NCBI GenBank assembly: GCA_032718475.1
Contig: JAUCBJ010005507.1
Span: 5,024-69,023, forward strand
Direction of reading: 5' to 3'
Source: Nemertoderma westbladi
Taxonomy: Eukaryota > Animalia > Xenacoelomorpha
Length of the DNA stretch: 64,000 nucleotides
Positions 1 to 61,246 of this stretch are shown in pieces (positions within the stretch are counted from its first letter, which is position 1; each line of letters begins with the position of its first letter). Under the pieces are notes generated by a model, which searched no databases, had not been told where the DNA came from, and saw only the letters and a list, made by a program, of their open reading frames with translations. Made by a program: the position numbers and the translations under genes.

Positions 1-1947
1 GTATTTTATTGGAATTATTCCCGTATTGCTCACACACCTGTATACTTGGGGACCAGGAGTGAGTCCTGTCAGTATTTTATTGGATTTATTCCCGTATTGC
101 TCACACACCTGTATACTTGGGGACCAGGAGTGAGTCCTGGCAGTATTTTATTGGAATTATTCCCGTATTGCTCACACACCTGTATACTTGGGGACCAGGA
201 GTGAGTCCTGTCAGTATTTTATTGGAATTATTCCCGTATTGCTCACACACCTGTATACTTGGGGACCAGGAGTGAGTCCTGTCAGTATTTTATTGGATTT
301 ATTCCCGTATTGCTCACACACCTGTATACTTGGGGACCAGGAGTGAGTCCTGTCAGTATTTTATTGGAATTATTCCCGTATTGCTCACACACCTGTATAC
401 TTGGGGACCAGGAGTGAGTCCTGTATGTATTTTATTGGAATTATTCCCGTATTGCTCACACACCTGTATACTTGGGGACCAGGAGTGAGTCCTGGCAGTA
501 TTTTATTGGAATTATTCCCGTATTGCTCACACACCTGTATACTTGGGGACCAGGAGTGAGTCCTGTCAGTATTTTATTGGAATTATTCCCGTATTGCTCA
601 CACACCTGTATACTTGGGGACCAGGAGTGAGTCCTGGCAGTATTTTATTGGAATTATTCCCGTATTGCTCACACACCTGTATACTTGGGGACCAGGAGTG
701 AGTCCTGGCAGTATTTTATTGGAATTATTCCCGTATTGCTCACACACCTGTATACTTGGGGACCAGGAGTGAGTCCTGGCAGTATTTTATTGGAATTATT
801 CCCGTATTGCTCACACACCTGTATACTTGGGGACCAGGAGTGAGTCCTGTCTGTATTTTATTGGAATTATTCCCGTATTGCTCACACACCTGTATACTTG
901 GGGACCAGGAGTGAGTCCTGTCTGTATTTTATTGGAATTATTCCCGTATTGCTCACACACCTGTATACTTGGGGACCAGGAGTGAGTCCTGTCTGTATTT
1001 TATTGGAATTATTCCCGTATTGCTCACACACCTGTATACTTGGGGACCAGGAGTGAGTCCTGGCAGTATTTTATTGGAATTATTCCCGTATTGCTCACAC
1101 ACCTGTATACTTGGGGACCAGGAGTGAGTCCTGGCAGTATTTTATTGGAATTATTCCCGTATTGCTCACACACCTGTATACTTGGGGACCAGGAGTGAGT
1201 CCTGGCAGTATTTTATTGGAATTATTCCCGTATTGCTCACACACCTGTATACTTGGGGACCAGGAGTGAGTCCTGGCAGTATTTTATTGGAATTATTCCC
1301 GTATTGCTCACACACCTGTATACTTGGGGACCAGGAGTGAGTCCTGGCAGTATTTTATTGGAATTATTCCCGTATTGCTCACACACCTGTATACTTGGGG
1401 ACCAGGAGTGAGTCCTGGCAGTATTTTATTGGAATTATTCCCGTATTGCTCACACACCTGTATACTTGGGGACCAGGAGTGAGTCCTGGCAGTATTTTAT
1501 TGGAATTATTCCCGTATTGCTCACACACCTGTATACTTGGGGACCAGGAGTGAGTCCTGGCAGTATTTTATTTGAATTATTCCCGTATTGCTCACACACC
1601 TGTATACTTGGGGACCAGGAGTGAGTCCTGGCAGTATTTTATTGGAATTATTCCCGTATTGCTCACACACCTGTATACTTGGGGACCAGGAGTGAGTCCT
1701 GTCTGTATTTTATTGGAATTATTCCCGTATTGCTCACACACCTGTATACTTGGGGACCAGGAGTGAGTCCTGTCTGTATTTTATTGGAATTATTCCCGTA
1801 TTGCTCACACACCTGTATACTTGGGGACCAGGAGTGAGTCCTGTCTGTATTTTATTGGAATTATTCCCGTATTGCTCACACACCTGTATACTTGGGGACC
1901 AGGAGTGAGTCCTGTCTGTATTTTATTGGAATTATTCCCGTATTGCT
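1..1947 (-). repeat. 71-bp minisatellite (~27 copies, continues off window edge); unit = last 64 nt of exon 1884-2034 + donor GTGTGTG
   Basis: Period 71 (gtattttatt at 1, 72, 143...). Minus-strand unit agcaatacgggaataattccaataaaatacagacaggactcactcctggtccccaagtatacag|gtgtgtg matches the exon end. Confidence 0.95.
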
Positions 1948-2034
1948 GAGAAGGTTTAGGAACTTCTTCGTGCGCTAATCTTTCAAACTTCTGGAGAGCG
2001 GCGTTTTTCGATTCTTGGGCTGCCCGAATTTCCT
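1884..2034 (-). CDS. Exon of large minus-strand gene (EEIRAAQESKNAALQKFERLAHEEVPKPSQQYGNNSNKIQTGLTPGPQVY..)
   Basis: Acceptor tgtgtttag| at 2035-2036; donor CAG|GTGTGT at 1883; phase 1 in, matching upstream exon 2268-2374. Confidence 0.8.
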
Positions 2035-2267
2035 CTAAACACAATAATAATAGATTATAATCACCGAATTTAAACCAATACGAAATAACTTTATATTTGA
2101 TGCTCTAAATTAGAAACGTCTTACAAAGTTTCATAAGCAGTTGAGTGGAATAAAACAGAGAACCTTGCCGTGTTCTATAATAACCGTTCTCACTCCCGAT
2201 AGTAACATCTTAGTACCAAAACCCTGCACCACACTGCATATACGACCGTAGGTACTGCTCAACTAAC

Positions 2268-2374
2268 CCGCGTTCGTCCGATCAACATGAACGTTATCCT
2301 GTTCCCTTGGTTCCTCGAACCTCTGCATCACCGAACGCAGACCGCCTTCCACAGTCGGAGGAAGTTCGCCTTCC
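2268..2374 (-). CDS. Exon of large minus-strand gene (PEGELPPTVEGGLRSVMQRFEEPREQDNVHVDRTNA)
   Basis: Acceptor gttttcag| at 2375-2376; donor GG|GTTAGT at 2267; phase 2 in / phase 1 out fit both neighbours. Confidence 0.8.
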
Positions 2375-2416
2375 CTGAAAACAATAAACCCATAGACTAC
2401 TGAGTGCGGAACTCAC

Positions 2417-2609
2417 CTATAGAGGGCGCGTTGAACTCTAATGGTTCGTCGAAACTATAACGAGTTGACATTTCGTCCCGCCAGGAGACCTTCCGAATGT
2501 AGCGGGTAGGATGAATGTCGGACTCGGACTCGGAACCGGAATCACAAGCGACTGGTACGATGTAGACAGGCACATCGTCCTCTATTATCGTACGTCCGTC
2601 CGCGTCCAT
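2417..2609 (-). CDS. Candidate alternative first exon (MDADGRTIIEDD...RKVSWRDE...NAPSI)
   Basis: ATG at 2609, open frame, strong donor TAG|GTGAGT at 2416 in phase 1, compatible with exon 1884-2034; no obvious upstream acceptor. Confidence 0.5.
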
Positions 2610-2854: not shown

Positions 2855-3260
2855 GGAGATGACTCATCCTTGTGACGTTGAATCTCCATAACAACGGGTT
2901 TGACATCATCTATTTGGGTGTGACTAGGAGGGGGGCTTTGTACGGGGCTGGGAGGGGGGCTCTCAGTCACATAGACTGCGTCGGCTGGGGGTGACCTGAC
3001 CACATCCACATAATGAGACTGATTCGTTGCTGGGAGAGACTGGTAAACCCGATCAGTAGAATCATTGAGGTTCTCATCCTTGGCAGCAGTGTCGTATTCT
3101 AGCTTATTCTCGTAGACCATCTCGTATGCGACTCCATCGTCAGTGGGTTGCCTGGTAACAGTGGAGCTGATCCTACGAATATCGACGTTTTCGTAAATGT
3201 CATCGTCGTCGCTAACATCTGGGATAATGTCACCGCCAGACGCCGATACGATAATCAGAT
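2855..3260 (-). CDS. Exon of large minus-strand gene (DLIIVSASGGDIIPDVSDDDDIYENV...RHKDESSP), acidic with Tyr motifs and Pro-rich patch
   Basis: ORF 2851-3315; acceptor ttccttgtggcag| at 3261-3262; donor CC|GTGAGT at 2854; phases fit. Confidence 0.85.
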
Positions 3261-3320
3261 CTGCCACAAGGAAAAAATAATTAGTTATTAATGTAGTTTG
3301 GTTTATTAATAACATAACGG

Positions 3321-6300
3321 AGTGTCCCCTCTCTCACCATACAACCCACCTCTCTCATCCTCTGGTGGTGTCTCCCTTCTCTCCCCATACAACCTACCTC
3401 TCTCATCCTCTGGTGGTGTCTCCCCTCTCTCCCCATACAACCTACCTCTCTCATCCTCTGGTGGAGTCTCCCTTCTCTCCCCATACAACCTACCTCTCTC
3501 ATCCTCTGGTGGAGTCTCCCCTCTCTCCCCATACAACCTACTTCTCTCATCCTCTGGTGGTGTCTCCCTTCTCTCCCCATACAACCTACCTCTCTCATCC
3601 TCTGGTGGAGTCTCCCCTCTCTCCCCATACAGCCTACCTCTCTCATCCTCTGGTGGAGTCTCCCCTCTCTCCCCATACAACCCACCTCTCTCATCCTCTG
3701 GTGGTGTCTCCCTTCTCTCCCCATACAACCTACCTCTCTCATCCTCTGGTGGAGTCTCCTTTCTCTCCCCATAAAACCTACCTCTCTCATCCTCTGGTGG
3801 AGTCTCCCTTCTCTCCCCATACAACCTACCTCTCTCATCCTCTGGTGGAGTCTCCCCTCTCTCCCCATACAACCTACTTCTCTCATCCTCTGGTGGTGTC
3901 TCCCTTCTCTCCCCATACAACCTACCTCTCTCATCCTCTGGTGGAGTCTCCCCTCTCTCCCCATACAACCTACCTCTCTCATCCTCTGGTGGAGTCTCCC
4001 TTCTCTCCCCATACAACCTACTTCTCTCATCCTCTGGTGGTGTCTCCCTTCTCTCCCCATACAACCTACCTCTCTCATCCTCTGGTGGAGTCTCCCCTCT
4101 CTCCCCATACAACCTACCTCTCTCATCCTCTGGTGGAGTCTCCCTTCTCTCCCCATACAACCTACCTCTCTCATCCGCTGGTGGAGTCTCCCCTCTCTCC
4201 CCATACAACCCACCTCTCTCATCCGCTGGTGGTGTCTCCCTTCTCTCCCCATACAACCTACCTCTCTCCCCATACAACCCACCTCTCTCATCCGCTGGTG
4301 GAGTCTCCCCTCTCTCCCCATACAACCCACCTCTCTCATCCGCTGGTGGTGTCTCCCTTCTCTCCCCATACAACCTACCTCTCTCCCCATACAACCCACC
4401 TCTCTCATCCTCTGGTGGAGTCTCCCTTATCTCCCCATACAACCTACCTCTCTCATCCTCTGGTGGTGTCTCCCTTCTCTCCCCATACAACCTACCTCTC
4501 TCATCCTCTGGTGGTGTCTCCCTTCTCTCCCCATACAACCTACCTCTCTCATCCTCTGGTGGAGTCTCCCTTCTCTCCCCCATACAACCCACCTCTCTCA
4601 TCCTCTGGTGGAGTCTCCCTTCTCTCCCCATACAACCTACCTCTCTCATCCGCTGGTGGTGTCTCCCTTCTCTCCCCATACAACCTACCTCTCTCATCCT
4701 CTGGTGGAGTCTCCCTTCTCTCCCCATACAACCTACCTCTCTCATCCTCTGGTGGTGTCTCCCTTCTCTCCCCATACAACCTACCTCTCTCATCCTCTGG
4801 TGGTGTCTCCCTTCTCTCCCCATACAACCTACCTCTCTCATCCTCTGGTGGAGTCTCCCTTCTCTCCCCCATACAACCCACCTCTCTCATCCTCTGGTGG
4901 AGTCTCCCTTCTCTCCCCATACAACCTACCTCTCTCATCCGCTGGTGGTGTCTCCCTTCTCTCCCCATACAACCTACCTCTCTCATCCTCTGGTGGAGTC
5001 TCCCTTCTCTCCCCATACAACCTACCTTTCTCATCCTCTGGTGGAGTCTCCCTTCTCTCCCCCTACAACCCACCTCTCTCATCCTCTGGTGGAGTCTCCC
5101 TTCTCTCCCCATACAACCTACCTCTATCATCCTCTGGTGGAGTCTCCCTTCTCTCCCCATACAACCTACCTCTCTCATCCTCTGGTGGAGTCTCCCTTCT
5201 CTCCCCATACAACCTACCTTTCTCATCCTCTGGTGGAGTCTCCCTTCTCTCCCCCTACAACCCACCTCTCTCATCCTCTGGTGGTGTCTCCCCTCTCTCC
5301 CCATACAACCTACCTCTCTCATCCTCTGGTGGAGTCTCCTTTCTCTCCCCATACAACCTACCTCTCTCATCCTCTGGTGGTGTCTCCCCTCTCTCCCCAT
5401 ACAACCTACCTCTCTCATCCTCTGGTGGAGTCTCCCTTCTCTCCCCATACAACCTACCTCTCTCATCCTCTGGTGGAGTCTCCCCTCTCTCCCCATACAA
5501 CCTACTTCTCTCATCCTCTGGTGGTGTCTCCCTTCTCTCCCCATACAACCTACCTCTCTCATCCTCTGGTGGAGTCTCCCCTCTCTCCCCATACAACCTA
5601 CCTCTCTCATCCTCTGGTGGAGTCTCCCCTCTCTCCCCATACAACCCACCTCTCTCATCCTCTGGTGGTGTCTCCCTTCTCTCCCCATACAACCTACCTC
5701 TCTCATCCTCTGGTGGAGTCTCCTTTCTCTCCCCATAAAACCTACCTCTCTCATCCTCTGGTGGAGTCTCCCTTCTCTCCCCATACAACCTACCTCTCTC
5801 ATCCTTTGGTGGAGTCTCCCCTCTCTCCCCATACAACCTACTTCTCTCATCCTCTGGTGGTGTCTCCCTTCTCTCCCCATACAACCTACCTCTCTCATCC
5901 TCTGGTGGAGTCTCCCCTCTCTCCCCATACAACCTACCTCTCTCATCCTCTGGTGGAGTCTCCCTTCTCTCCCCATACAACCTACTTCTCTCATCCTCTG
6001 GTGGTGTCTCCCTTCTCTCCCCATACAACCTACCTCTCTCATCCTCTGGTGGAGTCTCCCCTCTCTCCCCATACAACCTACCTCTCTCATCCTCTGGTGG
6101 AGTCTCCCCTCTCTCCCCATACAACCCACCTCTCTCATCCTCTGGTGGAGTCTCCCTTCTCTCCCCCTACAACCCACCTCTCTCATCCTCTGGTGGAGTC
6201 TCCCCTCTCTCCCCATACAACCTACCTCTCTCATCCTCCGGTGGTGTCTCCCTTTTCTCCCCATACAACCCACCTCTCTCATCCTCTGGTGGAGTCTCCC

Positions 6301-6651
6301 TTCTCTCCCCATACAACCTACCTCTCTCATCCTCCGGTGGTGTCTCCCTTTTCTCCCCATACAACCCACCTCTCTCATCCTCTGGTGGAGTCTCCCTTCT
6401 CTCCCCCTACAACCCACCTCTCTCATCCTCTGGTGGAGTCTCCCCTCTCTCCCCATACAACCTACCTCTCTCATCCTCCGGTGGTGTCTCCCTTTTCTCC
6501 CCATACAACCCACCTCTCTCATCCTCTGGTGGAGTCTCCCTTCTCTCCCCCTACAACCCACCTCTCTCATCCTCTGGTGGAGTCTCCCCTCTCTCCCCAT
6601 ACAACCCACCTCTCTCATCCTCCGGTGGTGTCTCCCTTTTCTCCCCATACA
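3321..6651 (-). repeat. 48-bp minisatellite (~69 copies); unit = exon tail + donor (GAGAG|GTAGGT/GTGGGT), reads YGERRETPPEDERGRL
   Basis: Period 48 (ccccatacaa at 3431, 3479...). First unit overlaps exon 6610-6730. Confidence 0.95.
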
Positions 6652-6730
6652 CTTCGTATGAATGATCGGACAACGAATCAACTTCCAATTCCCCCACAAC
6701 GTTTTCTTCTCTTTCTCCGGAATCGATCGA
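6610..6730 (-). CDS. Exon of large minus-strand gene (SIDSGEREENVVGELEVDSLSDHSYEVYGEKRETPPEDER)
   Basis: Acceptor ttttcccttaaattag| at 6731-6732; donor GAG|GTGGGT at 6609; phase 0 in, phase 1 out, joins G|AT of exon 3260. Confidence 0.8.
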
Positions 6731-8391: not shown

Positions 8392-11025
8392 TCATCTGGG
8401 ACTGGTGGGGCTCAATGGAGTGTCCGAGCCATTGGAAGAGGCGCTGGTAGACCGCAGTGCAGTAAACCGACGGACCTTCAGCTGCGGTACGGTTCGCTCT
8501 ACCTCTTTCGGTTTGTAACACGTCTCCAGGATGGCCTTTGTATTGAGTTTACGAACTTCAGCTGGCCTCTCTGAGAAGACCTCCTTGTCTGACTGATCCA
8601 ACAAGGTCTGTAGAATCGCGTCTTGATTTAGTTTACTAACTTCTCTCGGATTCTCTGTCGCCACCGCTGGGGCGGAGGATTTAGGCTGGAAAGCCAAAAG
8701 GTCTAATTTGTTGACAGAAATCGAATTATCCGTGGTTCTGGAATGGCTCGTATTGGTTTCAAGAAATAAACCCAGCGTCTCATTGGATAATCGACTAACA
8801 TCCAGACCATTGGATGTCCTTGACACATCTTGAATATCACGTGTCTCAGAAAACGTAGACAAAGCATTCATGTTAAGCTTTCTCACTTCTAAAACTTCCC
8901 TTTCCACAACAGAATTGTTCTGGAACATATTATTTATATTGGATTTATCCAACTTTTGAGAAACATAAATTGGTTCCTTTTCATCGACGCTAACCTGCGA
9001 TGCCTTTAGCCAATCGGGGTTGACACGTTTACATTTTGGAGGCGGTTTTAAACCCAAAGATTCAGAATTCGAAGTATTTCCGTTGCTTTCTACGAATGCT
9101 CCAATCACGGATGTATCCAACTTCCGTGGTGCCAGCGTGGCCCCTTCGCGGGAAATATTGGAACTTTCATTGTTTGCGAATAAGTTGCCTTCGCTTATGT
9201 TGAGTTTATTTGGTGTTGGTAAACTCTCCCTACGAGTTACACAGTTACTAACGTTACCAGAAAAACTACTAGTCACAGATGAATCTAACCTCTTAACTTC
9301 TCCAGTTTCCGCAGTCTTCGCAGTCGAATCATTCTCTGTTGGTTTAAAGGTAAATTTATCTAAACTGAGACGCTTGACGGGTTTAATCGGCCCATTTACT
9401 TCGGTTGACATATCGCCCTCAACTGGGTTGACGAAAGTATTTTTTATATCGCCGATATTTACACTAATAATATCTTCTTTTTCACCGCTTCGGTTTTCGC
9501 AAGTGGATTTGATATCAAATTTATTTACATCCAAAGGTTTAATATCGCTCGCTTTATCAGTTTGCCTCACATAAGCAACATGTTCGCCATCTAAGAATGG
9601 ATTCAGAGCATCTTTATTTAAAGATCGAACTTCCGGCACTTCAGTCTTATCAATAACCTTCGATGTATTGGAGAAACTCAACTCAGCAACATTCAACTTA
9701 CTCACTTGAGCAACTTCCCTTTTCTGTACATGCTCATTACTGGTATTTTGGAACACATCAATGGCGCTGCTGTCTAACTTCTTTGCATCTGGTACAACTT
9801 CTTGTTTAACATACTCCACGCTTTCAGTGAGCCGCTTCTCTATAAGAGATTTGTCGATCGTTTGCGACACGTAAATGGGCTCCTTCACCGCCGTTTCAGT
9901 GGTTCTTGAGAATTCCAGGAATTTTGGATCAATCTTTTTGGCCTTGGGAACGTTTTCCTGCTTAGCAACCACTATGGAAGATGGCTGTAGAAATGTTTCA
10001 ACCGAACTTCTATCCAACTTATTAACCTCAATTACTTCTTTACTAACTACTACATCACCATTAGACTCTTCAGTGAATTTTCTCAAAGACTGAGAACCAA
10101 TTTTATCTGGGGTCGTCTTGGAAACGTTTTCACCCTGTTCCGCAGATTTGAATTGGAACTTGGATGGGTCCAATTTCTTCGCCTCCGTCATCTCTGACCG
10201 CTCTTCCACATTACGAATGTTCTGGAACGTCTCAACAGCTGATACATCCAACTTCTTTACGGAAGACTCCTGTTTCTCAGCCATATGTTCTTTATTCTCA
10301 GTAAACACACTGATCGCCTCGCTATTCAGCTTACTAACGTTGACACTCTCAGACCTCTCCACAACTGACCACTGACCCCTCTTGGTAAATGTAGACATGA
10401 CGTCCCCGGAGAGTTTATTAACCTCCACTACTCCCTGTCTAGACACCTCGGGGGTCTCAATAAAGCTCTCGATTTTACTCAGGTTCAACTTATTAACAAC
10501 AACTCCCTCACTCCTGGGCGTGTCGATCTCCCCAACTTCCGTAAAGTTCTTCATCAGATGATTATCTAATCGATTAACAGTCAGCGATTCCGACTTAGTT
10601 ACCGTAGAAACCGACTCAGTAAACGCACTAATGGACCCGCTGTCAAGTCTCTTCACTTCCACATTCTCTCTCTCGCTATTCACTCCGCTCTGCTGCCTTA
10701 GAAACGCTAACTTATCGCCTGGCAACCGGTTGACCTCTATGGATTCCCTCCGGGGTGCATCGCTCGGCTGATCCGAGAATAAATCCGTGAGGTTTAATTT
10801 ATTAACCGAGGGACTTTCGCTTTTAGGGGCTGGTTCCGCCTCCAGTTCCCCCTCAAACGCGTCCATTTTCCCAGACCGCAATCTACGCGGTTTTATGACG
10901 TCACTCTTCTTGACTTTGGTGCGTTTTTTTTCCTGTGTGAGGAACCCCAACTTACTGGAATCCATCTTACTTACTTTGAGGTCCTTACCAGCTGAGGTCC
11001 AATAACGGAATTCGTCTTCATCGTA
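8392..11025 (-). CDS. Large exon (877 aa + stop) with many degenerate V/A-x-K/R-L-D/N-x(3-6)-F repeats; probable alternative terminal exon; short form 10975-11025 ends at donor AAA|GTAAGT
   Basis: 857-aa ORF extends in frame to acceptor ttccgtttacag| (11026-11027), YDEDEFRYWTSAGKDLK...; phase 0 matches exon 13005-13291. Confidence 0.85.
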   Translation of the reverse strand, partial: YDEDEFRYWTSAGKDLKVSKMDSSKLGFLTQEKKRTKVKKSDVIKPRRLRSGKMDAFEGELEAEPAPKSESPSVNKLNLTDLFSDQPSDAPRRESIEVNRLPGDKLAFLRQQSGVNSERENVEVKRLDSGSISAFTESVSTVTKSESLTVNRLDNHLMKNFTEVGEIDTPRSEGVVVNKLNLSKIESFIETPEVSRQGVVEVNKLSGDVMSTFTKRGQWSVVERSESVNVSKLNSEAISVFTENKEHMAEKQESSVKKLDVSAVETFQNIRNVEERSEMTEAKKLDPSKFQFKSAEQGENVSKTTPDKIGSQSLRKFTEESNGDVVVSKEVIEVNKLDRSSVETFLQPSSIVVAKQENVPKAKKIDPKFLEFSRTTETAVKEPIYVSQTIDKSLIEKRLTESVEYVKQEVVPDAKKLDSSAIDVFQNTSNEHVQKREVAQVSKLNVAELSFSNTSKVIDKTEVPEVRSLNKDALNPFLDGEHVAYVRQTDKASDIKPLDVNKFDIKSTCENRSGEKEDIISVNIGDIKNTFVNPVEGDMSTEVNGPIKPVKRLSLDKFTFKPTENDSTAKTAETGEVKRLDSSVTSSFSGNVSNCVTRRESLPTPNKLNISEGNLFANNESSNISREGATLAPRKLDTSVIGAFVESNGNTSNSESLGLKPPPKCKRVNPDWLKASQVSVDEKEPIYVSQKLDKSNINNMFQNNSVVEREVLEVRKLNMNALSTFSETRDIQDVSRTSNGLDVSRLSNETLGLFLETNTSHSRTTDNSISVNKLDLLAFQPKSSAPAVATENPREVSKLNQDAILQTLLDQSDKEVFSERPAEVRKLNTKAILETCYKPKEVERTVPQLKVRRFTALRSTSASSNGSDTPLSPTSPR

Positions 11026-13004: not shown

Positions 13005-13291
13005 ATTAGCGGGTTTGGCTCGGCCTTCAAATACTGCGAGTTTATCCTCCGGTAGGGGTCTATCGTCGACGCCCCCCTGAGACGGTTGTTCGTCGGCACC
13101 ATCTAGCGGCCGACCACCGACATCCACCGGCGTCAGGTAATCCGCATCCACGTGAACATCATCGGGTATTAGGTTGACATGGAAACCGGTAGGACTAGCC
13201 AACTGGCGGTTGAGTGAATCTCCCGAGGAAGAACTCGACATAGATGTTGGTCCTTGGCGTTCCATATCCAAAAGGTCACTCATAAGGTCGC
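13005..13291 (-). CDS. Exon of large minus-strand gene (GDLMSDLLDMERQGP...LAVFEGRAKPAN)
   Basis: ORF 12975-13283; acceptor gctttttag| at 13292-13293; donor AAT|GTGAGT at 13004; phase 1 in / 0 out. Confidence 0.85.
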
Positions 13292-13911
13292 CTAAAAAGC
13301 GATAACGGAAGATGTTAATATGGATGGGTGGGGGGGGGGGGGGGGGGGGGTGTTGTTTGGTGGCTGCCCAAGCAAGTCGCTGAAGTGATCTTTCAATTTC
13401 CCAACACGTTCTTCAGGACTAACCATTATTAAGCTTACTCAACCTTGTTGATGTTTCCGTTGTTGGTTGTTCGGTTTTTACTTTGTAGGCTATCTTAAGA
13501 TCTTCTCTCTTACAAGTAACCTCATAATCTTGCCATGGCACATACTGTTTTCGTTTACGTTTCCGGAATTATGTCTCTTGACTGATTCCTTGTTGGGCTT
13601 TTATTAAATTCTGTTATATTGAATTGGTAGACTGGTTTCATTTTTCTAATATAAGTCCAGTCAGATCTTATGGGTTCTCATTCTCATATCTTTCAGCTAC
13701 GGGAGTAAACCAGTTGAGGTCGTAACTCCTACAAGCTTCTTCGGAGTAGGCTGCTAGCGGTTGATCGTCTACTTTCCGCCTATCCATGGCCAACAGCCCT
13801 GCTGGCGACTGTAGGTGTCCTTTGGTACCCTGTACTGAACAAGGTCTGCATTACTTCGGTATGGAATGTTATATAGAGGGTTATTGTACAATGTTATATA
13901 TATGTTATATA

Positions 13912-15772
13912 TGGTCGGCCTATAAGCGGCCCTAACAAACAACTCACCATGTTCTGGTCGGCCTATAAGCGGCCCTCACAAACAACTCACCATGGATGGC
14001 CTAAAATCGGCCCTCACAAACAACTCACCATGTTCGGGTCGGCCTATAAGCGGCCCTCACAAACAACTCACCATGGATGGCCTAAAATCGGCCCTCACAA
14101 ACAACTCACCATGTTCTGGTCGGCCTATAAGCGGCCCTCACAAACAACTCACCATGGATGGCCTAAAATCGGCCCTCACAAACAACTCACCATGTTCTGG
14201 TCGGCCTATAATCGGCCCTCACAAACAACTCGCCATGTTCTGGTCGGCCTATAATCGGCCCTCACAAACAACTCACCATGTTCTGGTCGGCCTAAAATCG
14301 GCCCTCACAAACAACTCACCATGTTCTGGTCGGCCTATAATCGGCCCTCACAAACAACTCACCATGTTCTGGTCGGCCTATAATCGGCCCTCACAAACAA
14401 CTAACCATGTTCTGGTCGGCCTATAATCGGCCCTCTCAAACACATCACCATGGACGGCCTATAATCGGCCCTCACAAACAACTTACCATGTTCTGGTCGG
14501 CCTATAATCGGCCCTCTCAAACAACTCACCATGGACGGCCTATAATCTGTCCTCACAAACAACTAACCATAGTCTGGTCGGCCTATAATCAGCCCTCACA
14601 AATAACTAACCATGGTAGGCCTATAATCGGCCCTCACAAACAACTAACCATGGTCTGGTCGACTTATAATCGGCCCTCACAAACAAGTCAACATGGTCGG
14701 CCTAAAATCGGCCCTCACAAACAACTCACCATAGTCGGCCTATAATCGGCCCTCACAAACAACTCCCCATGGTCGGCCGGCTTATAATCGGCCCTCACAA
14801 ACAAGTCAACATGGTCGGCCTATAATCGGCCCTCACAAACAACTAGTGGTCTGGTCGGCCTATAATCGGCCCTCACAAACAACTCACCAAGGTCTGGTCG
14901 GCCTATGAGCGGCCCTCACAAACAACTCCCATGTTCTGGTCGGCCTATGAGCGGCCCTCACAAACAACTCCCAACTCCCATGTTCTGGTCGGCCTATAAT
15001 CGGCCCTCACAAACACCTCACCATGGTTGGCCTATACTCGGCCCTCACAAACAACCCACCATGGTCGGCCTAATCGGCCCTCACAAACAACCCACCATGG
15101 TCTGGTCGGCCTATAAGCGGCCCTCACAAACAACTCACCATGGTTGGCCTATAATCGGCCCTCACAAACAACCCCCCATGGTCGGCCTAATCGGCCCTCA
15201 CAAACAACCCACCATGGTCTGGTCGGCCTATAAGCGGCCCTCACAAACAACTCACCATGGTTGGCCTATACTCGGCCCTCATAAACAACTCACCATAGTC
15301 GGCCTATAATCGGCCCTCACAAACAACTCACCATGGTCTGGTCGGCCTATAAGCTGCCCTCACAAACAACTCACCATGGTTGGCCTATAATCGGCCCTCA
15401 CAAACAACCCACCATGGTCGGCCTAATCGGCCCTCACAAACAACTCACCATGGTCGGTCGGCCTATAATCGGCCCTCACAAACAACTCACCATGTTCTGG
15501 TCGGCCTATAAGCGGCCCTCACAAACAACTCACCATGGTCGGCCTAATCGGCCCTCACAAACAACTCACCATGGTTGGCCTATAATCGGCCCTAACAAAC
15601 AACTCACCATGGTCGGCCTATAAGCGGCCCTCACAAACAACTCTCCATAGTCGGCCTATAAGCGGCCCTCACAAACAACTCCCCATGGTTGGCCTATAAT
15701 CGGCCCTCACAAACCACTCTCCATGTTCTGGTCGGCCTATAATCGGCCCTCACAAACAACTCACCATGTTCC
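13912..15772 (-). repeat. 43-bp (and ~38-bp variant) minisatellite, ~45 copies; most units carry exon tail + donor CATG|GTGAGT
   Basis: Plus-strand unit ggtcggcctataatcggccctcacaaacaactcaccatgttct; first unit overlaps donor at 15764. Confidence 0.95.
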
Positions 15773-16065
15773 GGTTTAGAATCTGCCATGTCGACAGTTG
15801 ACGGTTGGCTAACGATTCCACTAGAAACGTCAACCAATAGAGGTTGATCTACACGTTGTGGGTCAGTCTCTATTGGTCGGCGCTGTTGGTCTGAGTCTGG
15901 GAGATCCTGGGAGACTACGTAGGTCCGGTCAACATCCCGTTCCTGTGGATCTCTGTCACCCGACTCAGGAGAGTCACCACGGTATTCGTCTGGGGTGTGA
16001 GACTGCAACGTCGCCGCACCCAAGATCTCGTCCAACAAACTGCCTTCGGTATCCACGTGATCCGT
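15765..16065 (-). CDS. Exon of large minus-strand gene (TDHVDTEGSLLDEILG...MADSKPEH)
   Basis: ORF 15694-16056; acceptor tatatgtttag| at 16066-16067; donor ATG|GTGAGT at 15764; phase 0 in / 1 out. Confidence 0.85.
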
Positions 16066-24075: not shown

Positions 24076-25967
24076 GTCTTGTGGTAAATAGATTGTGGTA
24101 ATTAGATGCAGTATAGTGTTGTGGTAATTAGACACTTGCATTCTGTATATTGTGGTAATTAGATGCCATTGTAAAATAATATTGTGGTAATTAGATGCAG
24201 TATAGTGTTGTGGTAATTAGACGCAGTATAGCTGTATAGTGTTGTGGTAATTAGACGCAGTATAGTCGTGTGGTAAATAGACACTTGAGTTCTGTATATT
24301 GTGGTAATTAGATGCAGTATAGTGTTGTGGTAATTAGACGCAGTATAGTCTGATAGTGTTGTGGTAATTAGACGCAGTATAGTCGTGTGGTAAATAGACA
24401 CTTGAGTTCTGTATATTGTGGTAATTAGATGCAGTGTAGTGTTGTGGTAAATAGACACTTGCGTTCTGTATATTGTGGTAATTAGACGCCAATGTAAAAT
24501 AATATTGTGGTAATTAGATGCAGTGTAGTCTTGTGGTAAATAGACACTTGCGTTCTATATATTGTGGTAATTAGATGCCATTGTAAAATAATATTGTGGT
24601 AATTAGATGCCTCTATCGAATTGTTGGGGTAGATTGCGGTAGATTGTGGTAGGTTGGGGTAGATTGTGGTAGGTTGGGGTAGGTTGGGGTAATTAGTAGG
24701 ACCGCTGCTGGCTGCTCCTTTCCCTTAATGTTTTTAATTTAATTAATTTTTAAAACCTTCTGAACACCTAGTTTGTGTTTGCGGTCAATTTGCGCCATTG
24801 ACTATAAAACGTAAGGTAGGCTACCCACCCACATACTGACATACTTTAAGTCTGTAAGTTAAATCATACTCGATATACGGGTAGGCCTACATTTTTGGAC
24901 GGGTGCGTTTTAAACGGATACGTTTTAACCTGCAACCTTTCCAAGCCAGCAAGCAGTCAAGTATCTACACAGTGCTGATGTGCCATCTGTCAGTCTGTGC
25001 CACTGCTGCACTGTCTAACTGTGACTGTCTTTGTCTTGCAGTCTTGTAGGGGCATCATACCGCGCTATCGGTACAAACTTGGAACCTTCATGCTAACAGG
25101 CTAATACACTGATACAAGCTGAGAAGCAGCCCTTTTGAAAATTTGGCCTATTTCAGTATTTAGAAATTATAATTTGCCCGCCCGCCGCACGGCAGCACGG
25201 TGCAAAAATCATGCGCCGGCTCGTTGAAAAGCTACCGGTGGTACCATACAGCCATAGTCCATACTGTCATACCGTAGGGTAGGCATACCGGTACTTCAGT
25301 AGGCCTACTTGATACCGGTACCGGTACGGTAGGCCTACTGGCTGACAGATAGACCTACACCCTACACGACATATTCCTGTATTCGCCGCCTTGTGTCTTG
25401 GCTCAGTCAGTTAGTTGCTCTCGCGTCTCGCCTCGCACTTCACACTTCGACTTCAGCACTTGACTCAGTGACTGCCTTCAGCACTTCAAATCAACAAATC
25501 AAACTCACCATATCGGCCTATCCAGCTATTAGGTGTACTGCTGTACTGATGCCGGTCTGCCCTGTTCTTCTGTCTGGCTGTAGCAGGTTAAACAATAAAA
25601 AAAACCGGAAGAATAAAGCACAAACAGACAAAGACGGGGGCTGACTTCTGGACTTACTGCTGTACCGGTACTGAATGAGGACAGACTATGATATGGCAGC
25701 AAGGAAGTACGGTACCGATACCGGTAACTTAACTTCGTTGGCCTAACTCAGTAACTGTCAAGGATATGAGCGTGTGACTTGTGAGGGGTGAAGCAACAGC
25801 AGAACAGAGCCTGGTCTGTAAAGAGAGCTGATGATTTGGGACTTATGTTTTGTTTTCAGAATAAGTAAATTCATTTTATTTAAGTCATACAGCTAAGCTA
25901 TATTTATCAGCAACTTTTTGTGAAAAACATATACTTATTATTTGTGGCCAGCATCTTTATCAGCAAC

Positions 25968-47585: not shown

Positions 47586-47684
47586 TTTTTTGATTTCCAC
47601 ATTCCCATCTTCTTACTTTCAAATCCACCTCCCCACCCCATGCTTCTTCCCACATTCGATTCGTTATCCACCTTCCCCCATTCC

Positions 47685-53750: not shown

Positions 53751-54559
53751 CGTAATGACAATAGGGGAGGCAACCACTGGTGAAATGACATCGCCCTGCT
53801 TTCTAATACGCTACAGTAGCAGATGCACAGCTTCAACAGTACTGAATAAAGTTGAGGGGGCTGCTAAGGAGCAGGGCCGCCGAGAGGGGTGGGGGGGGGG
53901 GGGGGGGGCATCCCCGGCACGGGATATGCTCAGGGGGGGCCGGAACAGGCCTCATGGGAAATTTTTTTAAACTTAGACTAGGTAAACCGTCGTCTTGTTA
54001 TTTGGAGCCCTTCATGGTGATTAAAATGATACAACTTCGTAAATATTAATTCCAGAACATGAAAATAATTGAACAATTGGTGGACCAGCTTGTTGTATAG
54101 GTGAGTTGATTCTATCAGCAGTCTATTGGTTGTCTGGTTGTCTGGCTCCCTGCATATCAAGCTGACTCGGATAGCCCAGTTGATAGTTGAGGGCGCAAAG
54201 CTGGGAAAGGGCTTCCCCTTCCCACCAATGCTATAAAACAGTGTGTTTTTTTATATATTATTTATTAAGCCAACATTATGGCACCAGTGAAATAAGTAAA
54301 TAACGATCATATAAATTAAAGCACGATTAATTGTTAAAAATATACTAAGGGTAGAGATACTTATACCCAGATTTTTATAATGAAATATTATAAAATACTG
54401 AGAGCGCTTAAAATATTTATTTGGCCCAATCGTTAAGAGATTTATTGTTATTTCGGCAACTAGTAAGGTGATATATATCGGCTGTATCCCCGCAAATCTG
54501 GCAACTGCAATTTTCATCAGGTTCGCAGAAATCTTTTCTGGAACAGATCGCAAAGTGAA

Positions 54560-55804
54560 AGCCATGGACAGAGAAACGCGTTAATACGTGGCGATTTCGT
54601 TTATTTGAATCTGTCCAAGTTCGGTTTGTCAATGCAGGAGAACTCCAAAATTCAGTGTGTATCTCAGCGCATTTTAAATCAATATCTTGTAAATATTTGC
54701 GATACGCGTCTGTTTCCGGTAATTCTAAAGACGTGAAAATTTGAATAATAAGCGGCTTTTCTTGGCATAAGGCGAGCGTAAGTCGGTTCTTGGCGGTTTT
54801 ATGCAGGCAAGCAATACCCTTTTGAGGTAGGTTGACTTAATCTTGTCAAGGGAATGAAGGTTGGTAGTTGACAGCAATGGCCAAAGTTCTACGAAACCGT
54901 ATGTTATGATAGGATAGATCTTCAATTGGAAAAGAGCAACAGCTGTACGAAGGGACAAGAGCTGAGGGGACTTGATACTATGACTAGCCATTAAGGATTT
55001 GCAAACAATTTCAGTTACATGTTTGGTGAACCAGCGACGGTTGAAATAGAACTCCTAGGTATTTATATGAATTTGTGATATATTAACTGGCTTTCCTCTG
55101 AAAGTAAGAGTCATTGGCACATAATTTTCCGTCTCGGCGGAATTTCATTATTTGTGTTTTCTTCAAATTTATTTCTAAACAGTTTTTGTAACACCATTCA
55201 TTTAGAGCATCAAGAGTAGCTTGGATAGCCATTTTCGAATCTGAATATATCAGCAGGTCGTCGGCAAATAGCATTATGACAATTTCGCCAATTAGAAGAG
55301 TTGCGTTTTTTATGAAGTCGACTAAATCCAGTATAAATAGTAGAAATAGGAATGGGCTGAGGGAATCTCCCTGAAGAACTCCTTTAAGCTGTTCTATCGT
55401 CCGGCTTTTCCTTAGACCATCGTAAACCCGAATGTAATTTGCACCAAGTATTGCTTTTATAATTCTAAGAAGTTTTCCGCGGATACCGAATGACGATTCT
55501 AATTTAGACAATAGGATAGATCGGGGCACAGAATCGAAAGCTTTCGAAAATCGACGAAAAGAGCGTAAAGTGGCTTCTTTGGGGTTGATAAATTCGGTCT
55601 TATTCTAGAAATAAATTTTGCTAAAGGGATTTTGGTTGATTTCCCGGGCATAAATCCGAATTGCTCGGAAGGAATGAGAAAAGACAGTAGATTTCGCAGT
55701 CTCCTCTCCACGAGACGGGTTAAAATTTTATACATGGTACATAGTAAAGAGATACCTCTGTAGTTATCGGCGTCCGAACGGCAGCCCTTCCCCTTGTACA
55801 ACAC
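54560..55804 (-). pseudogene. Non-LTR retrotransposon reverse transcriptase remnant (frameshifted)
   Basis: NYRGISLL, QFGFMPGKST, LFVDFRK, GVLQGDSLSPFLF, LFADD across three frames. Confidence 0.9.
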
Positions 55805-57600
55805 GTGATGATGACCTTTGTCAAATGGGGGGGGGGGGGGGGGGTAAATTACACTTTTTCACATCAAATATTAAGGGGGCCAGGATTTTCCCCTCGACGC
55901 TAATATCTGCGGATTACTCCCAAAAATAAAGCTGTAAACTGTTCTACTGTATTTAGTTTCGTCTATTGTTTTAGTGAGAATAACGTGCCCCTGTAGCCTG
56001 CTCCTTTCCCTAAATTTGATAATTTAACATTGAAACGAAATAATAATTCGCCGAGATGGGATTTACGTCGAGTTTTCCCGCTGTCTCTGAACCGCGGTGT
56101 CACAGCATATTATTACATTACATTACAGTAACGCAGTACAGCAGTAGGCTCTATAATATGAGACTATACAATACCAGCAAATACGTACTACCGAAATATG
56201 TATTTTATTGTTTTGGTTAGAAATGCCTGCATCTGTAATCTGTTCCTTTCCACCAATTTGGTAACAATGTCGTTTGTTGTTTTGGTAAGAAAAGCCTGCT
56301 TCTGTAACCTGTTCCTTTCCCTCAATTGGTACCAATATCATTTATTGTTTTGGTTGGAAAAGCCTGCCTCTGTAACCTGTTCCTTTCCCTCAATTTGTAA
56401 CAAATATCGTTTATCAGTTTATTGTTTTGGTTAGAAAAGTCCGCCTTTACTTTTACCCTTTGCATATCTTGTTATTGTATTTCTCATAGCCTATTCTTGA
56501 AGGAAGCGATTATCCGATGGTCAATATCGTCGTCAACTTTCTAAGTTAGTGTATTTTTGTCGGTAAGTTAGTCATCAATCGGGTCGTTTAGATTAGATTC
56601 AAGGGGGACAAAATCTGCGAGAAGCAAGGGACAATATCTGCGCTAGCAGATTTGGTCTGTCGGGCAAAATATGCGGGGTGGGGGGGGGGGGGGGGGGGGC
56701 ATTTTTGCCTGTCACACTAGAACCAACTTTTGTGGAAATTATGAAGCGCATGCCGGAAATCTTAGCAAATATCCACTGACAATAAATTGTCAATACTTCT
56801 CACTCATATCACATACAGTAGGCCTAATATAGTACAGTAATAACAGACTGGCAGGCCTAACTATCAGACTATCGACCAGCAATAATCGTACCTCCCTCAG
56901 CACTCAGTACCATACTGCCATAAGCCCTAACCTATAGCTAGCTGTATAGGCCTACATCGTGCAAGTTAACTGGTTTATTTATGGAATCATTAGGCTAATA
57001 CCGGATAGGTACAGAGGTAGGTAGCCTACCTAATCAAAAACGAAGTTCTTTCATACCTGCTACTGCCATTCAACAAAATTAATAACATTCAAAATTAATA
57101 ATGCCTAACTCCTAAGGTGGTAAGGTTGTCTAACAGTCTAAAGCGAAGATCAACTGGAACGCGATTATTACAACAACTTCCCTAGATAACTTGCAATTTG
57201 AATGTTTAATGTACCAGTGCCGGTACTACCAGTACCGGTAGTAATTGCGTGGCGAAATCTTTTGGATATGTTGCTTAGAAAAACATGCCACTGTAACGTG
57301 CTCTTTTCCATTAATTGCTAATTTAACATTGAGACAATGTATTAATTATTCGTCGAGATGTGATTAGCGTCCAGTTCCCCCCCCCCCCCCCCCCCCCCCC
57401 CGTCTGCCTGTCTCCATTTCCGAATATGACTTTTGGTAAATTTTTCTGTTCCCACTGCCTTGGGATCGGATACAGGGATAGGCAGATAGGCCCAGTAGTT
57501 GGATATACCGGTACCTGATCTGTTGATGGTGTAGGCCAACTGTTAAACCGGTAGCTCCTATTGTTTGTGGGACATTGTAGACGATCAACGGGTGATTAAA

Positions 57601-57642: not shown

Positions 57643-57853
57643 GTAGGTAAATAATTTATAAGATACTAATTGCAAATATGTATTTATTATTTATTAGGTC
57701 CTATATTAGTATTTATTAGGTCCTATATTAGTATTTATTAGGTTCTATATTAGTATTTATTATTTATTAGGTGTTTATATTAAGATAACAATTCAATAAT
57801 TACATATGTTTTTATTTCTAACTTAATTACTATAAATATTAAATATTTTTTAG

Positions 57854-58039
57854 GATATAGAAGGTTTTATATGTCCTGATTGCCGTATCGCTTGTTCCTC
57901 AGCTGAGGACTTACAGACCCACTACCTATCCCATGGCGATGTCGCCAACTCGGCAGACAGCCAATGGCCTACAAGACCTCCAGGAGCTGAGGTCAGTGCC
58001 CTAAAGGCCAAGATTAATGACCTTGAAACCAATCTCTTT
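57854..58039 (+). CDS. EEA1: EEA1-like exon 2 with C2H2 zinc finger (EGFICPDCRIACSSAEDLQTHYLSHGD)
   Basis: EGFICP.C...L..HY...H is the Rab5-binding N-terminal finger of EEA1/Rabenosyn-5; following coiled coil (EVSALKAKINDLETNL) favours EEA1; tttttag| and |GTAAGT. Confidence 0.8.
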
Positions 58040-58329
58040 GTAAGTTTGTTTGGGTTATTTACGTTTGAGCTACCGAAGTTGGCGGAGTCTGACACTGTTA
58101 GGGGGGTGGGTCAATATTCGCCAATAGGGCCTGCTATTTGTTGTTGTTGTCAACTGCGTTACCATTTTGACCGGTTAATAAATTTGTCGAATTTACCGAA
58201 TAATCCAATATTACACAGAGATGTTCCTCTCACTATGCATTCGTTATATTATATTTATTGCCATGTGTATCGCATTATTGGGTTCCCTAGGTTACATTTA
58301 CGAGGTTTCTATGGTTTCCCCTTTATTAG

Positions 58330-58503
58330 GAGAAGTCGTCCGCTCTGCACAACTGCAGCGAGGAGATCAAGGTATTTAAATCGAACAAGGAGATGGTTTC
58401 CTCTGAGGTCGTTCTACTCCGTAAACAACTGGTTGAGTCCATAGAGTCCGGACGGCAGTATAAAGACAACTTAGATAAAGTGCAGATGAAGACAGCTAAT
58501 ATG
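58330..58503 (+). CDS. EEA1: EEA1-like exon 3, coiled coil (EKSSALHNC...EVVLLRKQLVES...KTANM)
   Basis: cctttattag| acceptor, ATG|GTAAAT donor, 174 nt phase 0/0. Confidence 0.75.
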
Positions 58504-58538
58504 GTAAATAAAATACAATACTATTTATATCCTCAAGG

Positions 58539-60368
58539 CAGGGACGGACAGGAAACGATACGATACCGAATCGGATTTCCGTATTTCGTATCGCAGTATT
58601 TTCTTCGTATCGAATTTCGTATCGTATTCGTACCGTATCGGTATAATACGAAGTGCTGTGCGAACAATTATTTTTCGTATCGTATTTTCGTATCATTCAT
58701 TTTTTTTATTTTTTATGTTTTTTACAGTAAAACGCCACATCACTTAGTTTTAGTTGTTAACAATTTTTTTTTACCAAATTGCTATATAAGATACCGGTAG
58801 GTTACAGTCAAGTATATTTGTGTGGAGAACTCTAATGGCGCCTGTAAGACATTGATACTACTACTACTAGGTCGAGCGAACTCGGACAAAATTGGTACAT
58901 AATTGGTTTAAGATTTTAATGTAAGGAAATTGGCATGGTGATTGTAAGGACTATTATTAGGTCCCTCATAACTTTGTGCCCATAGTAGCCTCCGTAGCAA
59001 GCAGTGGAGTGATGAAATGTTCAATCGACTCGTCACGTCATATATATTTTATAATTTATTACTGGTGTTATGGGTGAATGAGTGGTTTCATATTATTAAA
59101 TATTTTGTTGGGCACAGCTTTGCAATGTCAGCAGTGACGTACAGGTGGGATCGAACTGGTGACCTCCAAGTTGTAACCATTCAGATATCGGCTCAGGTAA
59201 AAGGTATATCTCGACCCCGATATCACATTCTAATGCTATGCATGGATCACTCCCACAGCTGCTATGCATGGATCACTTCCACAGCTGCTATGCATGGATC
59301 ACTCCCACAGCTGCTATGCATGGATCACTCCCACAGCTGCTATGCATGGATCACTCCCACAGCTGCTATGCATGGATCACTCCCACAGCTGCTATGCATG
59401 GATCACTCCCACAGCTGCTATGCATGGATCACTCCCACAGCTGCTATGCATGGATCACTCCCACAGCTGCTATGCATGGATCACTCCCACAGCTGCTATG
59501 CATGGATCACTTCCACAGCTGCCATGCATGGATCACTTTCACAGCTGCTATGCATGGATCACTTCCACAGCTGCACAGTTGACTTACAATGGGTTATTCG
59601 ATTGATAAAAGGGCGACCTCCAATGTCACTGTTTATATGAAGTTTTGATTGACTGGTTATGTCTGTCAATATTGAGTTTTGGGGCTGATATGGAAACAGT
59701 CGATGATATATCGAGTATATTGCGATACCCCGAACTATCTAGAAGATTTGACATTGATGTGCATAGTGGAACAGGAGGGGGCGAAGCAATCAGAGCGATC
59801 AATTTGTTTGTGTGGTCAGAGATTGTAGGATTTAAGAAGCATAGTAGTTAGAGAAAATGAAACCCTTTTAAACACAGAAGTTATAACGGATATTTGGGAT
59901 CTTAAGATTAATAAACGAAGTATTCCTGAACTATAAGTGCCACATCGGTTTCAAGGTTCCTTATGGATAATGGAGTTGAGTTAGGTGTGCTGAATGCGTA
60001 CTGGAAGGATATTCCGTGAAATAGATTTCCTGTTCCATGCAATAGAGGGTAATGATGTTGATGTAATGATGGACCTGGTCGAAGAAGGTTATAAAGCAGG
60101 GAGGAGTTGAAAGTAGTTTGTATTTGCGTTACTATAGTATAATACAATATTATAGAATTTATTTTATTATTATGTTATGTTGTTGTAAGACACAAATTAA
60201 GTACATTTTTATATCAAGTCTGAAATAAAGTACGATACGAAATCTTGTCGCATCTTGGATTTTTCGTATCATATCATATTTTCTCGAAATTCCATTCGTA
60301 TCATATCGTGAAAAATTGGTTCGTATAGTAGCGTATGTACGTATCGTATCGTATCCTGTCCCGGCCAC
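58539..60368 (-). mobile_element. Degenerate hAT-like element inserted ~35 nt into EEA1 intron 3
   Basis: Inverted ends cagggacggacaggaaacgatacgatac / gtatcgtatcctgtcccggccac with cgtat subterminal repeats; flanks share (c)aagg; remnant YP.L...FHG...AFS resembling hAT C-terminal domain at ~59910-60060. Confidence 0.55.
59235..59575. repeat. 26-bp minisatellite (~13 copies) gctatgcatggatcactcccacagct
   Basis: Direct inspection. Confidence 0.95.
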
Positions 60369-61246
60369 AAGGTGATATCCTACACATAGAGGTCAATAAA
60401 GTGATCTTTTTATCCTCTAGGTGGTGTCCTACACAGTGAAAGGTAAATAAAATACTATTTCTATTCTCTCGGTGGTGTCCCACACAGAGAGGTAAATAAA
60501 ATACTCTTTTTATTGTATAGGTGGTGTCCAACACAGAGAGACGTCAATAAAATACATTTGTTATCCTCTAGGTGGTTTCAACACATATATGAGTAAATAA
60601 AATACTCTTTTTATCCTCTAGGTGGTGTCCTACACAGAGAGGTGAATGAAATTCTCTTTATATCCTCTAGGTGGTGTTCTACACATAGATGGGTAAATAA
60701 AATACTCTTTATATCCTCTAGGTGGTGTCCTACACAGAGAGGTGAATGAAATTCTCTTTATATCCTCTAGGTGGTGTTCTACACATAGATGGGTAAATAA
60801 AATACTCTTTATATCCTCTAGGTGGTGTTCTACACATAGATGGGTAAATAAAATACTCTTTATATCCTCTAGGTGGTGTTCTACACATAGATGGGTAAAT
60901 AAAATACTCTTTTTATCCACTAGGTGGTGTTCTACACATAGATGGGTAAATAAAATACTCTTTATATCCTCTAGGTGGTGTTCTACACAGTGAGGTGAAG
61001 ATGAAATATAATTTTTATCCACTAGGTGGTATCCTACACAGAGAGGTGAATGAAATGCTCTTTTTATCCTCTAGGTGGTGTCCTACACAGAGAGGTGAAT
61101 GAAATGCTCTTTTTATCCACTAGGTGGTGTTCTACACATAGATTGGTAAATAAAATGCTCTTTTTATCCACTAGGTGGTGTTCTACACATAGATTGGTAA
61201 ATAACTTTTATCCACTAGGTGGTGTTCTACACATAGTGAGGTAAAA
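60369..61246 (+). repeat. 51-bp minisatellite (~17 copies) whose unit begins with the EEA1 intron-3 donor sequence gtaaataaaatac...tatcctctagg
   Basis: Period 51 (acacataga 60781, 60832); matches 58504-58538 gtaaataaaatacaatactatttatatcctcaagg. Confidence 0.9.

Follow-up and report, generated by a model that had tools for sequence, protein, structure and literature searches.

In amphioxus, minisatellites termed 'mirages' are known from Adh3, the globins BflGb6 and BflGb9, troponin C and PGBD5, where they lie at both boundaries (PMC3087553, PMC3902484), and in human a 37-bp VNTR is found in intron 7 of F7, with similar repeats in 6-16, CBS, lamin B2 (LMNB2) and PDGF, the most upstream donor copy winning in F7 (PMC1557585). 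Donor-spanning repeats with like anatomy and outcome are already published (PMC1557585, PMC3087553, PMC3902484), so that novelty of the kind, suggested by the earlier note on this DNA in saying that repeated multi-kb donor arrays are not a standard feature, is not supported in view of the mirages (PMC3087553) and the five human genes (PMC1557585). A further relevant process is the gain of introns through tandem genomic duplication of AGGT, in which an exonic segment is duplicated and a new intron made (PMC3443670, PMC2812944). Searches of the openly available literature gave no genome-wide survey of junction-spanning minisatellites.

The window analysed here is a stretch of 64,000 nucleotides from Nemertoderma westbladi and holds four minisatellites with copies of a splice donor (units of 71, 48, 43 and 51 bp, 17 to 70 head-to-tail copies), arrays 1-3 being all in gene A on the reverse strand and array 4 in gene B on the forward strand. 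Tandem Repeats Finder (TRF) and a splice-site test thus bear out the observation of four such arrays in two genes on opposite strands, with the donor inside the unit. By TRF all four are head-to-tail repeats within the unit size of the mirage and F7 IVS7 type (~10-160 bp), and they likely belong to this known type. They resemble the human F7 group in having a first unit that lies across the exon-intron boundary, donor copies repeated through the intron and use of the upstream-most copy (here at arrays 2 and 4); the human group, however, has 5-25 copies versus 17-70 here, in 6-16 and CBS splicing also takes place from the one or two copies that follow, while none of these was seen to be used in the contigs of our spliced run (X4), and the human cases are single loci versus 4 of 13 neighbouring donors here. 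The amphioxus mirages occur at both boundaries and ours, in a small sample, at donors only; our arrays are also longer, reaching about 70 copies and 3.3 kb, and occupy three introns of one gene. AGGT intron gain likewise multiplies a splice signal by tandem duplication, but in our arrays the copies of a pre-existing donor extend into an intron that was already present, with no sign of a new one. Such intron gain was rejected for these arrays, since the acceptors, used or modelled, lie in unique sequence 58, 619 (modelled) and 125 nt past arrays 2, 3 and 4.

Anatomy of the arrays

When gene A is spliced in silico at the first-copy donors, six exons form a stop-free frame of 1373 nt; neither a homologue nor a Pfam family was found for this gene. 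Its features, all on the reverse strand, are as follows.

1..1947, reverse: array 1, TRF 71 bp x27.4, 98% matches; 27 copies in the window; runs off its left edge
1884..2034, reverse: exon, tail repeated in array 1; predicted from the frame continuing out of the upstream exons; no X4 cover
2268..2374, reverse: exon; X4 contig joins 2855 to 2374; frame
2855..3260, reverse: exon after array 2; acceptor AG ends at 3261; X4 contigs 24 and 25
3319..6651, reverse: array 2, TRF 48 bp x69.5, 93% matches; about 70 copies
6610..6730, reverse: exon, tail repeated in array 2; X4 contig 25 has a loose end matching 6652-6681; frame
8392..11025, reverse: predicted alternative terminal exon, 2.6 kb, open frame from upstream exons
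13005..13291, reverse: exon after array 3; frame
13911..15775, reverse: array 3, TRF 43 bp x46, 84% matches, 13912-15769; mixed 36-43-bp units
15765..16065, reverse: exon whose tail seeds array 3; frame
25509..25577, reverse: predicted exon ending in a likely start codon; donor not repeated

The unit of array 1 consists of the last 64 nt of exon 2034-1884 and the first 7 nt of the intron (donor GT at 1883), and its donor is identical in all 27 copies. That of array 2 consists of the last 42 nt of exon 6730-6610 and the first 6 nt of the intron (authentic donor GT at 6609), while the first unit of array 3 comprises the last 11 nt of exon 16065-15765 and 32 nt of intron (donor GT at 15764). The proposed intron expansion is evident for the latter two, which fill 98% of a 3349-nt and 75% of a 2473-nt intron. 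An X2 contig has a loose end at 1876, where a unit is followed by unique AT-rich sequence, possibly because array 1 ends there on its far side, or else because the allele has a single copy. The predicted terminal exon sits within intron 13004-6731 and has no Pfam match. As a coding repeat (48 bp being 16 codons) array 2 was rejected, given its in-frame stops and frameshifts and an X4 contig that skips it; a gene A donor at 12954 was likewise discarded for an in-frame stop, 13004 fitting instead.

Gene B has a three-exon frame when the first-copy donor is used, and its features are these.

57852..58039, forward: exon, EEA1-like C2H2 finger; X4 joint 58039-58330, GT..AG; control, donor not repeated
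58330..58503, forward: exon, donor GT 58504 seeds array 4; two X4 contigs leave at 58503
58504..58538, forward: initial part of first unit of array 4, by alignment to a downstream unit
58539..60364, forward: transposon-like insertion, 1.8 kb, interrupting array 4 within its first unit
60373..61245, forward: array 4 body, TRF 51 bp x17.3, 84% matches, 60380-61245; 49-51-bp units
61371..61521, forward: exon after array 4; X4 contig loose end; frame

The first of these exons matches the EEA1 finger of PDB 3mjh_B (E=0.00078). As side observations, the SLC23 matches are to animals, at up to 62% identity, and the best TMEM161 match among the top ten has 32% identity; a further search gave no match at E<=1e-20. 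Positions 58504-58541 match the array 4 unit with a score of 44, reached by none of 5000 random 38-mers; the claim that arrays meet their own donor thus holds for arrays 1-3, and for array 4 only if the 1.8-kb insertion is discounted. The latter is flanked by an 8-bp near-duplication (58531-58538 and 60365-60372, 7/8 identical), has subterminal inverted arms of 21 nt (95% complementary) and contains its own 26-bp array (59234-59574). It may be a hAT-type DNA transposon, a group marked by an 8-bp target-site duplication, short terminal inverted repeats and a transposase or an autonomous partner. Parts of it are at very high depth in the DNA runs X1-X3, each of which runs from the gene B exon into its left end, and an insertion-free allele was not seen in their contigs, which cannot show absence.

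The first unit begins 64, 42, 11 and ~3 nt inside the exon at arrays 1-4 (42 and 3 being read by eye), and not exactly at the 5' splice site as had been stated. Exon/intron nucleotides per unit are 64/7, 42/6, 11/32 and about 3/48, all registers being different. This bears on the idea of the earlier note that RNA-templated rolling amplification might seed the arrays. The template would be a product of splicing, such as a lariat, a released exon or a circular RNA, and the head-to-tail copies and the position of all four arrays at donors of transcribed genes would agree with it. Lariats start at intron +1 and spliced RNAs have no intron bases, so that units which all straddle the junction, in four registers, disfavour lariat or mRNA templates; poly-A or retro-insertion marks are moreover absent at the inspected array ends. 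We consider an RNA template very improbable.

Presence of arrays 1 and 2 in a second sample

Runs X2 and X3 derive from one sample, which differs from the window by substitutions, whereas X1 may be the source sample. Array 1 has high depth in X1-X3, and in X2 and X3 both arrays 1 and 2 greatly exceed their flanks in depth, although depth in DNA runs gives no copy number; an X2 contig also reaches back 96 nt in array 2. Arrays 1 and 2 are thus present in the DNA of a second sample and, within this comparison, real. Artefactual assembly or miscalled junctions would be compatible with a gene A devoid of recognizable relatives and with array copy numbers that are assembly values, X1 being possibly the source sample; yet, besides the depth in a sample carrying substitutions, the units differ internally (6 and 18 distinct types) and spliced joints occur at two donors (X4), making such an explanation very improbable.

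Choice among donor copies

Run X4 is recorded as 'DNA?' and was taken as RNA from its spliced joints, exon-only cover and an oligo-T end. All spliced evidence comes from this one run, as contigs that drop rare forms and from an individual whose arrays are not seen. Within this scope, the first donor copy is used at arrays 2 and 4, the two of four arrays covered. Contig 25 passes from unique exon through one 42-nt unit tail to the acceptor at 3260, the tail having 2 differences from 3350-3391, as does the first unit of array 2, and two contigs join 58503 to the 61371 exon. The junctions are therefore real at 6609 and 58504, where spliced contigs place the edge unit across the exon-intron boundary, while at 1883 and 15764 they follow from the reading frame only. 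An alternative joint was not seen at arrays 2 and 4 in X4, whose contigs cannot exclude minor use of later copies. GTAGGT, present in 40 of 68 array 2 copies, is presumably nearer the donor consensus than the authentic GTGGGT, yet only the first copy is seen to be used. Splicing from later donors is computed to lead to a stop in 110 of 111 cases (array 2, 66/67; array 3, 31/31; array 4, 13/13).

The donor GT is kept in 27/27 copies of array 1, 68/68 of array 2 and 32/43 of array 3 (43 units split out of about 46), with 14 matches in array 4. The intact donors of arrays 1 and 2, together with the predicted alternative last exon of the gene with array 2, could be read as signs that the arrays are kept for a function, be it U1 snRNP recruitment or soak-up, a guard against premature polyadenylation, or tuning via stop-containing isoforms. 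However, any motif persists in young homogeneous repeats, and in the older array 3 the GT is gone from 11 of the 42 downstream copies, among them the three closest to the authentic donor, which leaves the suggested U1 decoy or landing role unsupported. Given also that the single spliced run has no alternative joint, in contigs that cannot show absence, we regard a retained function as highly improbable.

Excess of arrays at donors

One and the same test was applied to all modelled splice sites, and further copies of the donor 20-mer follow downstream at 4 of the 13 donors (26 copies at 1883, 63 at 6609, 42 at 15764 and 6 at 58504), close to the 4 in about 11 visible introns first noticed. Tandem repeats were found at none of the 11 modelled acceptors, with a single 5-mismatch match 2.9 kb away, in agreement with the earlier statement that no array grows from an acceptor. 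Non-coding minisatellites of at least 300 bp lie away from any modelled splice site in 8 of 12 cases in the window. A 6.9-kb array of 16-bp units with a donor-like start (40316-40330) was not counted, having no modelled exon and inverted copies at 47594-47722, nor were arrays of 26, 31 and 57 bp, which make up long inverted arms around a MULE-like frame.

With P values that ignore that the window was hand-picked for the donor-array pattern, uniform placement predicts 0.11 donor arrays (P(>=3)=1.6e-4), and an intron-only null 0.28-0.51, versus 4 observed (P(>=3)=0.002-0.01, P(>=4)=7e-5 to 7e-4). Given the excess over the intron-only null, donors are somehow favoured unless the window, picked for its pattern, is an outlier. 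The comparison of donors with acceptors is not significant (4/12 vs 0/11, p=0.09) and acceptor mirages are published for amphioxus (PMC3087553), so that a donor-only polarity cannot be maintained as a rule. By analogy with those acceptor-side mirages, purging of acceptor copies would be no general rule either.

This excess over both nulls, and the 4/13 donors versus 0/11 acceptors, would be expected if the donor itself seeded the arrays, through a paused polymerase, an R-loop or a break at the exon-intron edge, selection merely permitting persistence. Sense-strand G skew (0.62, 0.34, 0.08 and -0.05 in arrays 1-4) makes two arrays G-rich, and exons have 50% GC versus 39% in native introns of the window, so exon ends may seed better. 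Nevertheless, two arrays have no G skew, three are in one gene of a window chosen for its pattern, and the donor-acceptor difference is as given above; we hold donor-linked seeding to be rather unlikely.

Tolerated tandem duplication as the probable origin

The reading we favour, and consider probable, is that ordinary tandem duplication, in a genome prone to repeats, left the arrays as neutral by-products, the first donor being used. A tandem duplication of 40-70 bp across the junction would occur at the DNA level, probably via slippage or repair at 2-3-nt microhomologies, and the array would then grow and be homogenised by slippage and unequal exchange, as other minisatellites. The arrays would be tolerated because exon, first donor and acceptor end of the intron stay intact and splicing goes to the upstream-most donor, as in human F7; the rare transcript spliced from a later copy would carry a premature stop and probably be removed by nonsense-mediated decay. 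Origin, growth and neutrality are, as inferred from these features, likely. Two further points count for tolerated duplication: without their arrays the introns of arrays 2 and 4 are short (about 100 and 220 nt), so that tolerated duplications of this size must in many cases take in the donor, and the window is rich in unrelated minisatellites. Tolerance alone leaves the preference for donors over mid-intron positions unexplained.

As single loci the four arrays add little, their type being already described, and it is their density, 4 of 13 donors in the window, that could matter. Donor arrays look like extra exons, a trap for annotation and for the mapping of reads. Were one donor in three to carry such an array genome-wide, statistics on breakpoints and expression could be used to test how mirages originate, which PMC3087553 calls unclear, and with dozens of downstream donors as strong as the first, or stronger, oriented donor choice could be tested outside mammals. 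A lineage-wide hot spot of minisatellite birth, with multi-kilobase junction arrays at a sizeable fraction of donors but at hardly any acceptor, is in our judgement improbable; if true, donor amplification would be a main driver of intron growth and would provide a natural genome-scale test of first-come donor choice.

Junction arrays and their host genes

Tandem Repeats Finder agrees with the earlier note on the positions of four minisatellites, and gene modelling bears out that their hosts are two genes on opposite strands:

1-1947 (-), array 1, 71-bp unit, gene A, modelled donor GT at 1883
3319-6651 (-), array 2, 48-bp unit, gene A, authentic donor GT at 6609
13911-15775 (-), array 3, 43-bp unit, gene A, modelled donor GT at 15764
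58504-58538 and 60373-61245 (+), array 4, 51-bp unit, gene B, authentic donor GT at 58504

The arrays had been described as starting exactly at a 5' splice site: the donor does lie within the unit, but it is not where the arrays start, as the first units straddle the junction, with 64 exon and 7 intron nucleotides in array 1, 42 and 6 in array 2, 11 and 32 in array 3, and about 3 and 48 in array 4 (arrays 2 and 4 being read by eye). The straddling register thus differs in each of the four; in array 1 and in array 3, 2-3 letters are shared at the unit breakpoints. Array 4 is interrupted inside its first unit by a 1.8-kb element that has inverted arms and is flanked by an 8-bp near-duplication, and the segment 58504-58541 aligns to the array unit better than all 5000 random 38-mers. 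Once arrays and insertion are subtracted, the three complete introns measure about 105, 657 and 218 nt. In array 2, GTAGGT occurs in 40 of 68 copies, whereas the used copy has GTGGGT. In array 3 the GT is missing from 11 of 42 downstream copies, including the three nearest, which could stem from selection against competing sites close by or just from the divergence known for edge units.

In gene A, taking the first donor copy each time, exons 16065-15765, 13291-13005, 6730-6610, 3260-2855, 2374-2268 and 2034-1884 (-) form a stop-free frame of 1373 nt. A predicted alternative last exon of 2.6 kb (11025-8392, -) fits this frame; on inspection by eye a V.KL(D/N) motif recurs in it, and Pfam gives no match. 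An exon-like segment at 2417-2600 (-), with an ATG at its start, a good donor at 2416 and no clear acceptor, is perhaps an alternative first exon, and is skipped by a contig of run X4. In gene B (+), exons 57854-58039, 58330-58503 and 61371-61521 are in frame, and its C2H2 finger resembles that of EEA1.

Four public runs contain the stretch, none recorded as RNA. Three are DNA runs: X2 and X3 represent one sample with substitutions relative to the window, and X1 is possibly the window's source sample. The fourth, X4, we read as a transcriptome, since it shows exon cover, joints across GT..AG introns and an oligo-T end. Depth over arrays 1 and 2 far exceeds that of the flanks in X1, X2 and X3, and the left junction of the element in array 4 is present in all three; that arrays or junctions are artefacts is very unlikely.

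Donor usage

A 1366-nt contig of X4 links the unique portion of exon 6730-6610, via a single 42-nt unit tail, to the acceptor at 3260. This tail has 2 differences from the last array 2 unit, as does the first genomic unit, but since 24 of 67 units share that count, it is the unique flank that really argues for use of the first copy. In gene B, X4 shows a 58039-58330 joint, and in two contigs the exon ending at 58503 is spliced straight to the one at 61371, with insertion and array both left out. As to which donor copy is used, a point raised in the earlier note, it is the first at both arrays tested with X4 contigs (2 and 4), a result from one run in which contigs drop rare forms and the arrays of that individual are not seen. 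Computed use of later donors leads to stops for 66 of 67 in array 2, 31 of 31 in array 3 and 13 of 13 in array 4; among the four copies examined in array 1, phase is shifted by copy 2 and stops are read through with copies 3 and 4. At 2913, within coding exon 3260-2855, X4 contig 25 breaks off into a poly-A-like tail, through either early polyadenylation or a library artefact.

Donors, acceptors and chance

A fixed test applied to every modelled site found a repeated junction at 4 of 13 donors and 0 of 11 acceptors, in keeping with the claim that no array extends from an acceptor. The 13th candidate donor entered this test only; with the other 12 donors, the difference is non-significant (4/12 against 0/11, p=0.09; with 3/12, p=0.22). 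Among the 12 non-coding minisatellites of at least 300 bp in the window, four touch donors, where uniform placement predicts 0.11 and an intron-only null 0.28-0.51. Under the intron-only null, P(>=4) lies between 7e-5 and 7e-4 and P(>=3) between 0.002 and 0.01; these values overstate the case because the window was picked for the pattern and three of the four arrays lie in one gene, gene A.

Other repeats and genes in the window

17444-24681, within the first coding intron of gene A: 26/31/57-bp tandem repeats form the long inverted arms (94-98% complementary) of an element, a MULE/Mutator-like frame (21726-22466) lying between them
40320-47197: 6.9-kb, 16-bp array, plus strand nearly C-free (GC skew ~0.99), candidate G-quadruplex former; opens at donor-like text where no exon is modelled; inverted copies at 47594-47722
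11793-12825: 23-bp array away from splice sites; a short inverted repeat at its start (11758-11793, by eye) suggests seeding by a hairpin
32542-34584 (-): long exon coding a 21-bp (7-residue) repeat, ~85 copies, strong donor near 32592 at its end; its many Pfam matches look like repeat artefacts
49265-49789 (-): short frame, possibly ZSWIM7/SWS1-like; in Pfam, one weak unrelated match only
50921-52387 (-): TMEM161 gene, very divergent, intronless across the frames seen
54400-55860 (-): fragmented, disrupted non-LTR reverse transcriptase sequence (RVT_1)
62587-63999 (-): SLC23 gene, intronless across the frames seen, on the strand opposite gene B and possibly nested in an intron of it

Known counterparts and origin

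The arrays belong to a known repeat type: the earlier note did not regard repeated multi-kb donor arrays as a standard feature, and minisatellites that copy a splice donor are already described in PMC1557585 and PMC3087553. In the former, the first unit of the F7 intron 7 repeat spans the boundary and the most upstream donor is chosen, 6-16, CBS, lamin B2 and PDGF being given alongside. In the latter, amphioxus 'mirages', minisatellites copying an exon-intron boundary, occur at both boundaries, their origin being called unclear and a route to intron gain proposed. Parts of PMC3902484 add troponin C and PGBD5, and parts of PMC2812944 place minisatellites at exon-intron boundaries of human duplicated genes. 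Intron gain by AGGT duplication, as outlined in part of PMC3443670, differs from the pattern in these four introns. We found no genome-wide survey of such junction minisatellites in the literature searched.

The most likely origin, which we hold to be probable, is tandem duplication at the DNA level across the junction, combined with ordinary minisatellite growth and tolerance. A duplication spanning the exon-intron junction would start the array, which would then expand like any minisatellite and be tolerated, since the most upstream donor is preferred and use of any further copy would end in stops. RNA-templated amplification, which the earlier note had envisaged, whether from a lariat, mRNA or circular RNA, fits poorly with units that contain both sides of the junction in varying registers, and is extremely improbable; a role of the arrays as U1 decoys, also proposed there, found no support and is hardly to be expected. 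Seeding of the duplications by a donor-linked process is unlikely; the sense-strand G skew, which bears on such seeding, is mixed across arrays. The donor excess is the sole result that duplication with tolerance does not completely absorb. Donor-specific birth of minisatellites throughout the genome is quite doubtful, and what the analysis establishes is that junction-copying minisatellites are real and dense within this window.
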